Shown here: positions 43,012 through 47,456 of the stretch, piece by piece
Numbering within the stretch: the stretch's first letter is position 1
Layout of the letters: each line of letters starts with the position of its first letter
From: a virus
Length of the DNA stretch: 47,750 bases
Reading direction: 5' to 3' (one strand)
Virus genome (UHGV): UHGV-1789659
Position numbers and translations under genes: made by a program
The notes under the pieces: model-generated
The model's database searches: none
Seen by the model: only the letters and a program-made list of their open reading frames with translations
What the model was told of the DNA's origin: nothing

Positions 43012-43482
43012 GTGAAAGCTGATTTGTCAAAAATCCCTTCTATTTCAGGAAATAACGGTTATTCACTTCGTTGTGAGGAAGTAAAGATAAACGGTGAGTC
43101 GGCATATTGCAGCTACTCCGTTTGCCAGCACACCATTGTTGCCTTCAAAGAAAACCGTCTTCCTCGAACGTCTTTCCAGTCGTGCGCAACCGCTATTAAA
43201 GCAGGCAAATGCAAGGCATTAAAAATGATGGTTGAAGAGATTCGTAAAGGAGAATCTCTGTATTTCGAAGATATGACCGCACTCATTAGGGAGGTTGAAG
43301 AACGGAATAAACAAGCCAGAACTATAAAACGAAAACGTGACAGTGTAACAATTAATAGCATGGTTAAGAAGATCACCACATCACAAACAGCGATCACTGA
43401 CGTGTATGCGGCGTTGCTTGAAGAAACAACAAAAGAAACACATGAGCAAATCGATCAACATATGGAGGCAAAACAACAATGA
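43012..43482 (+). CDS. hypothetical Cys-containing protein (GTG start per ORF track)
   Basis: 156-aa ORF whose stop overlaps the ligase start (ATGA); start codon uncertain. Confidence 0.4.
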   Translation: MKADLSKIPSISGNNGYSLRCEEVKINGESAYCSYSVCQHTIVAFKENRLPRTSFQSCATAIKAGKCKALKMMVEEIRKGESLYFEDMTALIREVEERNKQARTIKRKRDSVTINSMVKKITTSQTAITDVYAALLEETTKETHEQIDQHMEAKQQ

Positions 43483-44801
43483 AAAAGTTGATCGCACTTA
43501 AGCATAAGCTGGACGAAATGAAAGCTATGGGAACCAATGCAAAAAAAGAGGCATTGGCCAACATGGATGACTTCGAGCAAAGCATGGTTTCATTGATGCT
43601 CAACCCTTTCATCCGTTTTGGGGTAAAGAAATACAAAGTGGCAGAGCCGCTTAGTGAGTCCGTCCCTAGTGACGAAAAAGCCATTGATATACTGAATAAG
43701 CTGGCCTCTCGCGAGCTAACGGGGAACGCAGCAATAGCTGCTGTTGAGTCTATCGTGGCGTCAATGTGCGCCGATGGGCAGGACGTGTTCCGTCGTTTCC
43801 TCTTAAAAGACCCGAAAGCGGGCGTTGGGATTAGCCTATGCAACAAGGTTTTTGAAAATCCCATTCCGAAATTCGAGGTGCAGCTGGCGTCGCCGTATAA
43901 AGAAAAAGGCGACAAATACCCCTTCAAGCCAAATCCTAAAGCAAAATGGCCGATGATTGGCAGCCTTAAGCTCGATGGTTTGCGAGTAATTTGCGAGGTT
44001 ATTGTTGACGAGGAAGAGGTTAACTTCCTTTCTCGTACTGGTAATCCAATCACGTCTCTCGATCACCTAAAGCCAGCCATGCTCGAATTAGGCAAACTTT
44101 CAGGCCACAAACACATCTTCTTCGATGGTGAAGGAACTGCCGGTTCATTTAACCAGTCCGTATCTGCATTGCGCAAAAAGAACGTGCAGGCAATTGGCGC
44201 TATTTATCATGTTTTCGACTTCTTCCTACCGGAATGGCGGACACAGGCTAAATCCAAAGAGTATGCAAAGACAGGTATGAAGCTGAAAGAGCGCCTGGCT
44301 ATGCTCGTGGCGTTGTTCAAAAACGATCGCAGTGAAGGCTACACACAAGACATTCACCTGCATCCGTTCTATATCATCCATAGCCACGAAGACTTCATCG
44401 AACGCTTCATGAAACGCCTGGACGATAACGAAGAAGGGGAGATGGGCAAAGATCCGAACTCTGTTTACGAGTTTAAACGTACCCGCAGCTGGTGGAAGTT
44501 AAAAGACGAAGATTCAGAAGATGGTGAAATTATCGACTTTGAGCCGGGCGACCCGGACTCTGGTTTTGCCAACACACTTGGAAAAATTGTTATTCGTCTT
44601 GAAAACGGCGTCATCGTTCGTGCGAGCGGCATTAAGCATAAATATCTGGACGAGATCTGGAACAACAAAGAGAAGTACCGTGGTCGTATTGTCGAGGTTC
44701 ATTGTCACGAGAAAACACCGGACGGCAGCTTACGCCACCCACGACTGAAATGGCCGCGTTGCTTACGCGATACAGAAGATCGAATCGGAGATAAAGAATG
44801 A
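43479..44801 (+). CDS. ATP-dependent DNA ligase
   Basis: Adenylation motif I KLDGLR (lysine in SLKLDGLRV), motif III FFDGEG, motif V WWKLK, in correct order and spacing. Confidence 0.8.
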   Translation: MKKLIALKHKLDEMKAMGTNAKKEALANMDDFEQSMVSLMLNPFIRFGVKKYKVAEPLSESVPSDEKAIDILNKLASRELTGNAAIAAVESIVASMCADGQDVFRRFLLKDPKAGVGISLCNKVFENPIPKFEVQLASPYKEKGDKYPFKPNPKAKWPMIGSLKLDGLRVICEVIVDEEEVNFLSRTGNPITSLDHLKPAMLELGKLSGHKHIFFDGEGTAGSFNQSVSALRKKNVQAIGAIYHVFDFFLPEWRTQAKSKEYAKTGMKLKERLAMLVALFKNDRSEGYTQDIHLHPFYIIHSHEDFIERFMKRLDDNEEGEMGKDPNSVYEFKRTRSWWKLKDEDSEDGEIIDFEPGDPDSGFANTLGKIVIRLENGVIVRASGIKHKYLDEIWNNKEKYRGRIVEVHCHEKTPDGSLRHPRLKWPRCLRDTEDRIGDKE

Positions 44802-45643: not shown

Positions 45644-46391
45644 TTTTATGTATAAGATGACTTTGTTTTCGTTGAGACGCGACTGTTTGAACTTAAATAC
45701 AAGTGCAAACGAAGAAGTCTATCTGGCAGTAGCCTAATAAGCCAAACACCAGCGAGGTCAGTTTCCAGCCTCGTTACCGAAATGGGACACACTGAGCGAG
45801 TGTGATTGCAGAACGCAGGAGGGAACATGAGTGTTCCCTCCGATGAAGTAACAGAATGGGCGGTCGGTATATTTTCAACTCCATATGACTCCCGGATTCT
45901 TAGCCACTGACCGCCCATCCTGTTACGTCATTTTGTTCAATTATGTCGTTTATACTGGGTTAAAAAGCGGCGACGTAGCCCGGCTGGTATGGTTAGCCAG
46001 CACACAACGTTGAGGCCATTACATTTTTATCAATTCTAAGGTTCTATTCACAGAGATACCGGCGAGCGTTGATATGTAACATGTTGGGCAAACATTCAAT
46101 CGGAGTAGTGGCCTCAACGTTGTGAAGACAGGATTGTTGTGTAGGTTTAACCACTGTTGCCATTGGTGCCTGTTTTCACAACAAATGATTCCATACATCA
46201 CATTGTATAAATTACAAAGTAGGTGCTGTCCTCAGAAACATCATCTACTTAAAGAGTTTGCCTTCTACTATTGAGCGAAGTCGAAAGCGTCTGGCACTAA
46301 CGAAAAGTGCAAGTAGCGGTGCGTTTCTTGGCAGAAACTAACACCGCCGCGATTGGCACTGTTGAGTAATAAATACTGTCAGTGCTGAATT

Positions 46392-46466
46392 GATGGTGTA
46401 GCTCAGCGGTAGAGCAGTTGGCTGTTAACCAACTGGTCGGTGGTTCGACTCCATCACTCCCCACCA
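46392..46466 (+). tRNA. tRNA-Asn(GTT)-like; acceptor stem pairs poorly, so possibly a pseudogene
   Basis: D-arm GCTC-AGCGGTA-GAGC, anticodon loop CTGTTAA, T-arm GGTGG-TTCGACT-CCATC, 3-prime ACTCCCC-A-CCA; 5-prime strand GATGGTG gives only 3 of 7 pairs. Confidence 0.5.
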
Positions 46467-46470
46467 AATT

Positions 46471-46546
46471 GCCGGTTTAGCTCAGTTGGTAGAGCAGTCG
46501 CTTTGTAAGCGAATGGCCAGCGGTTCGAGTCCGTTAACCGGCACCA
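46471..46546 (+). tRNA. tRNA-Thr(TGT)
   Basis: Acceptor GCCGGTT/AACCGGC pairs perfectly; D-arm GCTC...GAGC; anticodon loop TTTGTAA; T-arm AGCGG-TTCGAGT-CCGTT; encoded CCA. Confidence 0.8.
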
Positions 46547-47192
46547 ACATAATATTGAGAACATTGGCGTAACGGGGTCATATCCCAATCTATGAATAAA
46601 TGTTGCGTTGCCGCGTGACAACCAGTGTTCTCAACATTGTGGTGAATGCACAGGCTGATGTGCCGCAACTACAGTAGTGCGCGCTTTGCGGGGCTTGCTA
46701 CAACCCTGTGTCGGAGCTCAGCACCGACCATCACAATTTGGCTCTCTTGCAACAGCATAACGCTGGAATATGTCCAACCTGGTGCGGTCTGATCACCCGC
46801 CGTTAGCTCCACGAAACGGAGCGCACAACAGATAAGAGAACTTCCCATATGGGGCTTGTCTTAAATGCATCGAGTTCTCTTATCGCTGTGTCACAGACAA
46901 AATTCCGACAGCCCTGTTTATCATCGGACGCAACCTAAAAGGTCGAGGCAAAGCCAGGTAATAGCGGAGGGAGTGACACAGCACACAACAGGTAAGAGCA
47001 TTTTCAGAGTTCGACTCTCTGAGTTGCCATTCGTGGTGGCACGCGAGACGTGAATGCTCTTTCCGTTGTGGTGAATGTGGCTAAGCGCACGCGGGGAAAT
47101 GGTTATATTGATCATTTTATGACATCTGTGGCCCCGTTCACGGTGGATAACCAGCCAAAGGACACCGGGAGGCACCCGGCACCACAACAATT

Positions 47193-47278
47193 GGAGAGTA
47201 GGGAGCATGGTGCTCAAGCGGTCTTGAAAACCGCCCCATTGCGCAAGCGATGATGGTTCGATTCCATTACTCTCCGCC
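47193..47278 (+). tRNA. tRNA-Ser(TGA)-like with long variable arm
   Basis: Acceptor GGAGAGT/ACTCTCC, anticodon stem-loop GCGGT-CTTGAAA-ACCGC, T-loop TTCGATT, encoded CCA; D-arm spacing atypical. Confidence 0.6.
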
Positions 47279-47433
47279 AGACACAGCGTTGAGCGGTTTG
47301 GCCTTTTAATCACCCAGATTAAGACTCCGCTAACATAAACCAGACCGCTCAACGCTGTGATAGACAATTACGGCAGACGTTCTTAACCATAGCTTGCTAA
47401 CATCCTAGCAACACTTTTTTCAGCGCAAAATTC

Positions 47434-47456
47434 AAAGGGGCTTCGGCCCCTTTTTT
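47434..47456. terminator. bidirectional rho-independent terminator
   Basis: AAA-GGGGC-TTCG-GCCCC-TTTTTT between the tRNA region and a convergent minus-strand gene. Confidence 0.7.

Follow-up and report, generated by a model that had tools for sequence, protein, structure and literature searches.

We analyzed a cluster of transfer RNA (tRNA) genes in UHGV virus genome UHGV-1789659, a stretch of 47,750 nucleotides (nt) referred to here as the window. ARAGORN called three tRNA genes in the cluster, all on the plus strand: Asn(gtt) at 46393 to 46466, Thr(tgt) at 46471 to 46546, and Ser(tga) at 47193 to 47279. Homology to intact orthologues places the start of the Asn-like gene at G46392. Against the Rfam tRNA model, which has a threshold of 29 bits, the scores were 69.1 bits for the Thr gene and 47.7 bits for the Asn-like gene. 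The window is an SSU5-group Escherichia coli phage-plasmid. Its backbone shares 95 to 96% identity with Escherichia phages Cyrano and CMS-2020a, and 80% with Salmonella phage SSU5, over 20 kb of tail genes. Its tRNA region is also homologous to that of P1, P7, and D6. An earlier claim that the tRNA cluster is element encoded, made in a preliminary description of the DNA, is borne out by this backbone and by the annotation of the same cluster in hundreds of relatives. The region forms the 3′ half of a noncoding “RNA island” of about 1.8 kb on the plus strand (about 45.6 to 47.46 kb), an array of tRNA genes and structured small-RNA cassettes. Its tRNA genes make up an ordinary phage-plasmid cluster of a kind already annotated, in which one member is an Asn/Tyr chimera made by a deletion.

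Origin and fate of the Asn-like gene

The aberrant member of the cluster is the Asn-like gene at 46392 to 46466. Direct reading of the sequence confirmed the earlier observation that its acceptor strands (5′ GATGGTG against 3′ ACTCCCC) pair at three of seven positions, namely, G1-C72, G4-C69, and G5·U68. Rfam flagged four noncanonical acceptor pairs, and the mismatches include 2-71 and 3-70. The D, anticodon, and T arms were likewise found intact as described, the T arm (GGTGG/CCATC) with one G·U pair, and CCA is present. The gene therefore has the three arms and the CCA end of a functional elongator tRNA and lacks the 7-base-pair (bp) acceptor stem that such a tRNA requires. In P1, P7, D6, and Cyrano, tRNA-Asn has a perfect acceptor stem (GATGGTG/CACCATC) followed by G73 and CCA, and the window gene departs from these orthologues only from the T-loop onward. 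It is not collinear with any one intact tRNA, its 5′ 57 nt being those of tRNA-Asn and its 3′ 18 nt those of tRNA-Tyr.

The arrangement in close relatives accounts for this composition. In CMS-2020a, pZ1323HEC0016-2, pMRY16-002_2, and Ro157c2YLVW, a 75-nt Asn gene is followed by a 5-nt spacer, an 87-nt Tyr(gta) gene, a 4-nt spacer, and the Thr gene. Alignment of CMS-2020a with the window yielded a single clean gap of 92 bp with GGTGGTTCGA at both edges; in the relatives, this motif lies at offset 47 in the Asn gene and at offset 59 in the Tyr gene. The last 18 nt of the window gene, CTCCATCACTCCCCACCA, match the end of tRNA-Tyr without a difference, and tRNA-Tyr itself has GGGGAGT as its 5′ strand. 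Because the gap is bounded by GGTGGTTCGA and the 3′ end is that of tRNA-Tyr, the alignment indicates that the Asn-like gene is a fusion in which 57 nt from the start of tRNA-Asn are joined to 18 nt from the end of tRNA-Tyr. Three segments can be delimited on the plus strand. The part derived from tRNA-Asn(GUU), at 46392 to 46438, comprises the acceptor 5′ strand GATGGTG, the D arm, the anticodon arm, and the variable loop; it is identical to the 5′ part of the intact CMS-2020a gene (locus L005), and it carries the Asn(gtt) anticodon called by ARAGORN. The deletion junction, at 46439 to 46448, consists of the one copy of the 10-bp direct repeat that is left and forms the 5′ strand of the T-stem and the start of the T-loop. 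The part derived from tRNA-Tyr(GUA), at 46449 to 46466, comprises the end of the T-loop, the T-stem 3′ strand CCATC, the acceptor 3′ strand ACTCCCC, A73, and CCA, and is identical to the 3′ end of tRNA-Tyr in loci L005, L006, L007, and L008. The T arm is intact in the hybrid because both parents share GGTGG, whereas the acceptor stem fails because its two strands derive from different genes.

The ancestral order would then have been Asn(GUU)-Tyr(GUA)-Thr(UGU)-cassettes-Ser(UGA), and the likely cause of the fusion is slipped replication or recombination at the short repeat, slippage being the obvious way in which DNA between short direct repeats is deleted. Two other origins were considered and set aside. 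The Ser-like tRNA as donor of the hybrid 3′ end matches at 21 of 25 positions, compared to 100% for the tRNA-Tyr of the relatives. A scar of integration at a tRNA gene was rejected since nothing has been inserted and the change is a clean deletion.

To place the deletion allele among known sequences, we compared its junction with several collections. Among the best matches to a junction-centered query in 328 complete E. coli genomes and 300 PLSDB plasmids with this locus, all were two-piece matches spanning the extra 92 bp. All but one of the listed best matches in RefSeq E. coli genomes were annotated tRNA-Asn, tRNA-Tyr, and tRNA-Thr in succession; this annotation was readable in the RefSeq genomes only, as the PLSDB gene table carries no RNA genes. 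The exact 37-nt junction had no match in IMG/VR or in GTDB representative genomes. Absence of the junction from these collections and from the listed complete genome, plasmid, and phage records is what one would expect if the hybrid were an assembly or sequencing artifact and the real element carried Asn-Tyr-Thr. We regard such an artifact as highly improbable. The exact junction occurs once in the metagenome collection, in the independently assembled contig OKFU01000529.1, which is 95.8 to 97.5% identical to the window over about 8 kb and carries different downstream cassettes; a 10-bp repeat is also, in our judgment, too short for assembler collapse. Because this distinct contig, about 4% different elsewhere, has the identical junction, the deletion allele is genuine, although uncommon; it has either been passed down within a small lineage or arisen more than once at this repeat.

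The same contig carries an unusual gene at the Thr position (OKFU01000529.1, 8756 to 8888). This 133-nt gene keeps the acceptor, D-like, and T arms of tRNA-Thr, and its anticodon arm is replaced by about 57 extra nt that fold into several hairpins. Neither ARAGORN nor Rfam called it. It may represent a tRNA-like RNA, a tRNA that carries an intron, or a further decayed gene.

Structure prediction bears on whether the hybrid can function. RNAfold predicted no acceptor stem; instead, UGGUG pairs with the 3′ CACCA, and the predicted energy is −22.8 kcal/mol compared to about −30 for either parent. With Rfam, the hybrid scored 47.7 bits, down from 75.5 bits for the intact Asn gene. In addition, the hybrid joins an Asn anticodon to the Tyr discriminator A73, where intact tRNA-Asn has G73. 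Given the mismatched acceptor strands and this combination of anticodon and discriminator, the hybrid is most likely a nonfunctional pseudogene, and the element would have lost both its Asn and its Tyr tRNAs.

The preliminary description had offered two options for the gene, a pseudogene or an unusual tRNA. The first is the one supported; its origin, not recognized there, is an Asn/Tyr fusion that arose when 92 bp were deleted between T-arm repeats. A functional tRNA-Asn that tolerates a mostly mismatched acceptor stem would agree with the ARAGORN and Rfam calls, with the three intact arms, and with the occurrence of the allele in two distinct elements without further accumulated changes. We nonetheless judge it very unlikely, given that every orthologue has a perfect 7-bp acceptor stem, that four of the seven hybrid positions (including 2-71 and 3-70) are mismatched between strands taken from different genes, that A73 replaces the G73 of intact tRNA-Asn, and that the predicted fold ties up the CCA end. 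Retention of the hybrid as a nontranslating tRNA-like RNA, for example as a decoy offering its intact Asn anticodon arm to anticodon nucleases or as a regulatory or processing element, also seems improbable. In its favor are the intact anticodon stem-loop, the presence of the allele in two diverged elements, and, in one of them, the remodeling of the neighboring Thr-position gene into what may likewise be a tRNA-like RNA. Yet no positive evidence for such a role was found, repeated slippage or recent shared ancestry explains the recurrence equally well, and the allele is rare, with one other instance against hundreds of intact loci. A nonfunctional Asn/Tyr pseudogene thus remains our preferred reading.

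Rejection of the Asn-like and Ser-like candidates by tRNA-finding software, together with an absence of mature transcripts, had been proposed as the outcome that would refute the earlier description. The opposite was observed, with ARAGORN calling both genes and Rfam accepting the hybrid. Because both programs accept the hybrid, this test could not settle its status, and it was comparison with relatives that decided the nature of the gene, as far as sequence can. Taken together, these results suggest that (i) the aberrant tRNA can be explained without exotic biology; (ii) the locus clearly illustrates how the conserved T-arm sequences of closely packed tRNA genes serve as hotspots for deletion, giving rise to chimeric genes that tRNA finders still call; and (iii) annotators should treat such chimeric calls with caution.

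The Thr and Ser tRNAs

As described earlier, the gene at 46471 to 46546 (plus strand) is a canonical tRNA-Thr(UGU) with an encoded CCA, a call supported by ARAGORN and by its Rfam score. It differs from the CMS-2020a gene by a compensatory change (G5-C68 in the window, A5-U68 in CMS-2020a) that is consistent with selection on the fold. The anticodon stem (46497 to 46513) opens with a G27·A43 mismatch (GTCGC/GCGAA) that is common to CMS-2020a; the P1 stem is perfect (CCTGC/GCAGG).

In the 30 long open reading frames (ORFs) of the window, a mechanically chosen rather than curated set, ACA accounts for 17.3 per 1,000 codons (26% of Thr codons) and TCA for 13.5 per 1,000 codons (18% of Ser codons), whereas each makes up roughly 7 to 8 per 1,000 codons in E. 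coli. Tyr codons showed no enrichment in the same set. Given this heavy use of ACA and UCA, the retained Thr(UGU) and Ser(UGA) tRNAs, which read these codons, fit a classical codon-supply role.

The Ser gene (47193 to 47279, plus strand) is of a phage type, with a long variable arm, G73, an encoded CCA, A8, and a compact D arm. Rfam alignment and folding agree on a D arm of 5 bp (GAGCA/UGCUC) plus G·A, closed by a 3-nt loop, UGG, with compensatory variants in Roth50, AM_K4, and TAC1. Position 8 is A rather than the usual U. The anticodon stem (GCGGU/ACCGC) is 5 bp long, flanked by an A and a C that are unable to pair. The variable arm has a covarying stem of 5 to 6 bp and a GCAA loop, and the discriminator is G73; a long variable arm and G73 are identity features for SerRS. 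Across an alignment of 14 sequences, 92.5% of cells were paired, and 19 of 28 pairs had changed on both sides. None of 500 shuffles reached the observed values, and sliding the pairing partners reduced pairing to 36 to 60%. With its strong covariation, the Ser-like gene is a true tRNA-Ser(UGA) of phages and is widely conserved; in the reading we favor, it would be a functional tRNA with a compact D arm like that of tRNA-Sec. The atypical D-arm spacing noted previously therefore stands as a trait of the family, whereas the doubt cast on the gene does not, as it is conserved and covarying; its end lies at 47279, not at 47278.

Orthologues of this gene are 88 to 98% identical in Cyrano, P7, D6, and CMS-2020a. 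Related genes were found in Vequintavirus phages (about 89%), in Klebsiella and Acinetobacter phages (74 to 77%), and in IMG/VR contigs; in IMG/VR, a loose pattern search (ATGGTGC...CTTGAAAA) returned 120 matches, 9 of them Ser tRNAs and most of them chance. The gene is present yet unannotated in the RefSeq record of P7 (NC_050152, 3105 to 3191; locus L003) and in phage JEP1 (locus L130, 400 to 490), and the D6 record carries a note that tRNAscan-SE did not assign its amino acid. Missed or left untyped in several deposited annotations, this type of phage tRNA is systematically underannotated. In the Vequintavirus cluster of phage LL12 that holds a related Ser tRNA, a further irregular phage tRNA, a 99-nt “tRNA-Lys” (locus L129, 590 to 688), bears the note “isotype prediction via tRNAscan-SE inconsistent.”

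The only Rfam match to the Ser gene was the tRNA-Sec model (RF01852), at 45.1 bits. This best match, the scores of 43.1 to 46.6 bits for its relatives, and the resemblance of the D arm could point to a selenocysteine or suppressor tRNA. We give this explanation next to no chance: the score is below the gathering threshold of 47 bits, the acceptor/T branch has 12 rather than 13 bp, and the UGA anticodon is one for the Ser codon UCA, whereas reading of the stop codon UGA would take a UCA anticodon. Most family members have the UGA anticodon, and the variant L031gga has GGA, which is also a serine anticodon.

We then considered how the 12-bp branch of this serine tRNA is divided. The RNAfold minimum-free-energy fold is a cloverleaf with an 8-bp acceptor stem and a 4-bp T stem (8/4). 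This model adds two Watson-Crick pairs (A8-U65 and a C-G pair at the base of the variable arm), whereas the 7/5 alternative gains a single G49·U65 pair. Positions 8 and 65 form AU in 11 sequences and CG in 1, with 1 sequence unpaired; for positions 49 and 65, the counts are 10 GU, 1 CG, and 2 unpaired. Among the informative variants, L041 and L031gga favor 8/4, and L015 favors 7/5. On these predictions, we lean toward the 8/4 layout.

Structured RNA cassettes and island flanks

The hairpins reported earlier in the 650-bp spacer between the Thr and Ser genes are real: the arms GATAAGAGAACT and AGTTCTCTTATC (46831 to 46842 and 46873 to 46884; 12 nt each) are 100% complementary, and the hairpin that they form is one of several strong ones in the region, with folding z-scores of −4.3 to −10.2. 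Five units can be recognized along the plus strand. The first, a long-stem hairpin cassette at 46545 to 46644 (inverted repeat I4; z-score, −4.8), has a 3′ arm that overlaps the 5′ closing strand of the next unit; it is present and nearly invariant in P1, P7, D6, Ro157c2YLVW, CMS-2020a, and IMG/VR contigs. The second, at 46631 to 46742, appears to be a weak, diverged second copy of an STnc100-like RNA, sharing the TTGTGGTGAATG 5′ end, the hairpin, and the CAYCACAA 3′ end. It was identified with R1, a covariance model built from STnc100-like homologues with the window sequence included, which matched it over its full length (18.9 bits; rough E-value, 0.003); its own z-score is only −0.97. The third, at 46823 to 46982, is an extra cassette bounded by a direct repeat (D2, AGC[G/A]CACAACAG[A/G]TAAGAG, 160-nt spacing). 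It is absent from CMS-2020a and locus L081 and holds the hairpin at 46823 to 46896 (z-score, −4.3; two compensatory pairs), which in P7 and Ro157c2YLVW lies directly after the Thr gene.

The fourth unit, at 46984 to 47072 (z-score, −4.5), is predicted to form a four-way junction in which three hairpins are enclosed by an 18-bp stem. A copy with 76% identity keeps the fold, although 7 of 34 pairs have changed on both sides. The first hairpin (47005 to 47021) is a perfect T-arm-like motif, CAGAG TTCGACT CTCTG, conserved in the same copy, and hints that this cassette may derive from a tRNA. The fifth unit, an STnc100-like structured small RNA at 47065 to 47189, ends 3 nt before the Ser tRNA, and the P1 upl/plp region corresponds to it on the opposite strand. 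It scored 38.6 bits against RF02076 over model positions 31 to 147 of 206, and its relatives scored 33 to 43 bits, all below the threshold of 47 bits. Its nine homologues have invariant ends and a variable core, with 9 of 30 pairs compensatory. Model R1 scores the window unit at 133 bits by construction and detected extra sites in related loci at 40 to 59 bits, and it did not detect the divergent GTTGTGGTGGATT...CCACCACAAC unit of OKFU01000529.1. D6-like elements (D6 itself, locus L004, 1326 to 1435, 2941 to 3075, and 4121 to 4245; also loci L119 and L078) carry at least three STnc100-like copies along the same operon, with R1 scores of 40 to 137 bits.

Relatives carry differing combinations of these units. 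In Cyrano, Thr and Ser are only 8 nt apart; the stretch from 46738 to 47171 is missing from pZ1323HEC0016-2; and P7 and D6 have the STnc100-like unit after Ser. Breakpoints of homology with relatives fall in the boundary motifs AGC[G/A]CACAACAG[A/G]TAAGAG and GGCACCA(C)AACA. The motif CACAAC/GTTGTG is not enriched across the whole window (36 observed compared to 28 expected) but is locally enriched, with 8 of the 36 sites within 46003 to 47188. In an Rfam scan (E ≤ 10), the island's long hairpins had no match, and weak matches to YrlA, snoRNA, and sR46 were judged to be chance or tRNA driven. Sequence conservation and covariation indicate that the spacer is a mosaic of conserved structured-RNA cassettes, not junk, and these would have been exchanged between phage families at the shared boundary motifs.

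In P1, the corresponding spacer is annotated with plp and upl on the opposite strand, and the window has a 59-amino-acid minus-strand ORF at 46669 to 46848 that overlaps the upl homology. The spacer might thus encode minus-strand homologues of Plp and Upl, with the hairpins incidental. This also strikes us as very improbable. Mismatches between P1 upl/plp and the window number 5, 11, and 7 by codon position, with no excess at the third. In the window, the upl frame is broken by a 1-nt deletion and stop codons and the plp frame by a 4-nt insertion and stop codons, so that neither a conserved ORF nor a coding pattern of substitution was found. P1 plp overlaps trnT (tRNA-Thr) antisense, the spacer ORFs had no Pfam match, whole blocks are present or absent in relatives, and the RNA structures covary on the plus strand. 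We conclude that the window spacer, as it reads, does not encode the annotated P1 proteins. A literature search on plp/upl returned no match. For plp/upl of P1, the better reading is a set of conserved, structured small RNAs belonging to the STnc100 family, and this locus offers a concrete experimental target in a classic model phage.

The island extends on both sides of the tRNA genes. Its upstream part (45843 to 46182, plus strand) has three strong hairpins, at 45843 to 45931, 46003 to 46124, and 46119 to 46182 (inverted repeats I1, I2, and I5; z-scores, −6.6, −6.7, and −3.3), none of which matched Rfam. The first two, very stable hairpins within a 780-nt noncoding stretch upstream of the tRNAs, have 26-nt and 20-nt arms, respectively, and are 98 to 100% conserved in SSU5-group relatives. 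The minus-strand ORF at 45646 to 45918, which overlaps the first hairpin, had no Pfam match (the ORFs over the other two hairpins were not scanned). Directly after the Ser gene, a near-perfect 20-bp hairpin at 47280 to 47362 (plus strand; inverted repeat I3; z-score, −10.2), conserved in relatives, is a possible RNase III site. The base of its stem (CACAGCGTTGAG/CTCAACGCTGTG) resembles that of the 46003 to 46124 hairpin (CACAACGTTGAG/CTCAACGTTGTG). A consensus scan detected an intrinsic-terminator-like hairpin and T tract at 47434 to 47453 (plus strand), the likely 3′ end of the island transcript. The island is probably transcribed as one precursor that ends at this terminator and would then be cut by RNase P and other RNases. 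Upstream of the island, a 440-amino-acid ORF at 43479 to 44801 contains an ATP-dependent DNA ligase domain (Pfam PF01068; E = 5e−13); an ORF with this domain likewise precedes the RNA island in Cyrano and related plasmids.

Overall interpretation and known systems

We consider the best explanation of the locus, with a probability of roughly 0.85, to be an RNA island with an Asn/Tyr fusion pseudogene formed by a 92-bp deletion, a normal tRNA-Thr, a phage-type tRNA-Ser, and exchanged cassettes. Several points weigh against parts of this explanation. Occurrence of the hybrid in two elements that differ by about 4% could reflect tolerance or even retention of the gene, rather than two independent deletions, and its loss of function is deduced from predicted structure alone. 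In the Ser tRNA, position 65 can pair with A8 or G49 in most members, so that a 7/5 layout competes with 8/4. The codon comparison uses approximate E. coli frequencies and a mechanical ORF set. Finally, the transcription unit is proposed from strand, terminator, and analogy with the P1 ban operon, and a consensus scan upstream of the island revealed no promoter.

A broader proposal, which we offer tentatively and hold to be rather doubtful, is that the whole island of about 1.8 kb is a shuffling array of structured small-RNA cassettes, instead of tRNA genes separated by junk, whose shared boundaries would serve both as recombination points and as sites of processing in a tRNA/small-RNA polycistron. 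P1 plp/upl would then be misannotated, and the fusion and the Thr-like RNA of OKFU01000529.1 would be by-products of repeat-driven plasticity. Each cassette would be closed by a CACAAC...GTTGTG-type stem or end in a tRNA-like ...GGCACCA(C)AACA boundary, and cassettes would move among unrelated phage groups, namely, P1-group and SSU5-group phage-plasmids and, via the STnc100/PasD family, lambdoid prophages. Moderately interesting by-products of the analysis are the noncanonical architecture of the phage tRNA-Ser and the reinterpretation of plp/upl as structured small-RNA cassettes.

The island can be compared with four known systems. Phage T4 has a polycistronic array of tRNAs and small stable RNAs (species 1 and 2, or RNA C and D) released by tRNA-processing enzymes, which the island would resemble. 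The non-tRNA units of the window differ in being long-stem hairpins and STnc100-like RNAs, and they have no sequence relationship to those of T4. STnc100 (RF02076), a relative of PasD, is a small RNA of prophages that often occurs close to phage tRNA genes. The window unit shares its conserved 5′ UGGUGAAU and 3′ CACCGGGAGGCACCCGGCACCA segments and closing-stem architecture, and it is likewise phage borne and adjoins tRNA genes. It differs in scoring below the Rfam threshold with partial model coverage, in its central domain, and in its context, a phage-plasmid tRNA operon rather than a lambdoid prophage.

The Ser tRNA resembles the (8/4) tRNA-Ser of the allo-tRNA group, members of which turned up in phages and proteobacteria as near misses of tRNA-Sec searches (Mukai et al. 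2017, PMC5389517). Common to both are the serine anticodon, a long variable arm (with G73 in the window gene), a long D stem capped by a small loop as in tRNA-Sec, an acceptor/T branch of 12 bp for which an 8/4 drawing is possible, near-miss status in tRNA-Sec searches, and occurrence in phages. In contrast, the window anticodon stem has 5 bp rather than the extended 6 bp of that group. The Ser(UGA) tRNA of P7, D6, SSU5-group plasmids, and Vequintavirus phages belongs to or closely resembles the noncanonical 8/4 class.

The closest counterparts are the P1/P7 ban operon and the clusters of other SSU5-group elements. The C1-controlled P1 operon runs from the Pban promoter, upstream of the tRNA cluster, through a dicF-like region, trnA (Asn), trnT (Thr), plp and upl (opposite strand), tciABC, trnI (Ile), and ban. 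Across these clusters, the Asn, Thr, and Ser genes are orthologues (82 to 98% identical) that keep their order and strand, and the spacer cassettes are shared. Unlike P1, the window has an SSU5-group backbone, and its island ends at a terminator, whereas P1 runs on into tciABC-trnI-ban. What sets the window apart from all of these clusters is the fusion of its Asn and Tyr genes, a deletion that it has in common with only one other sequence.

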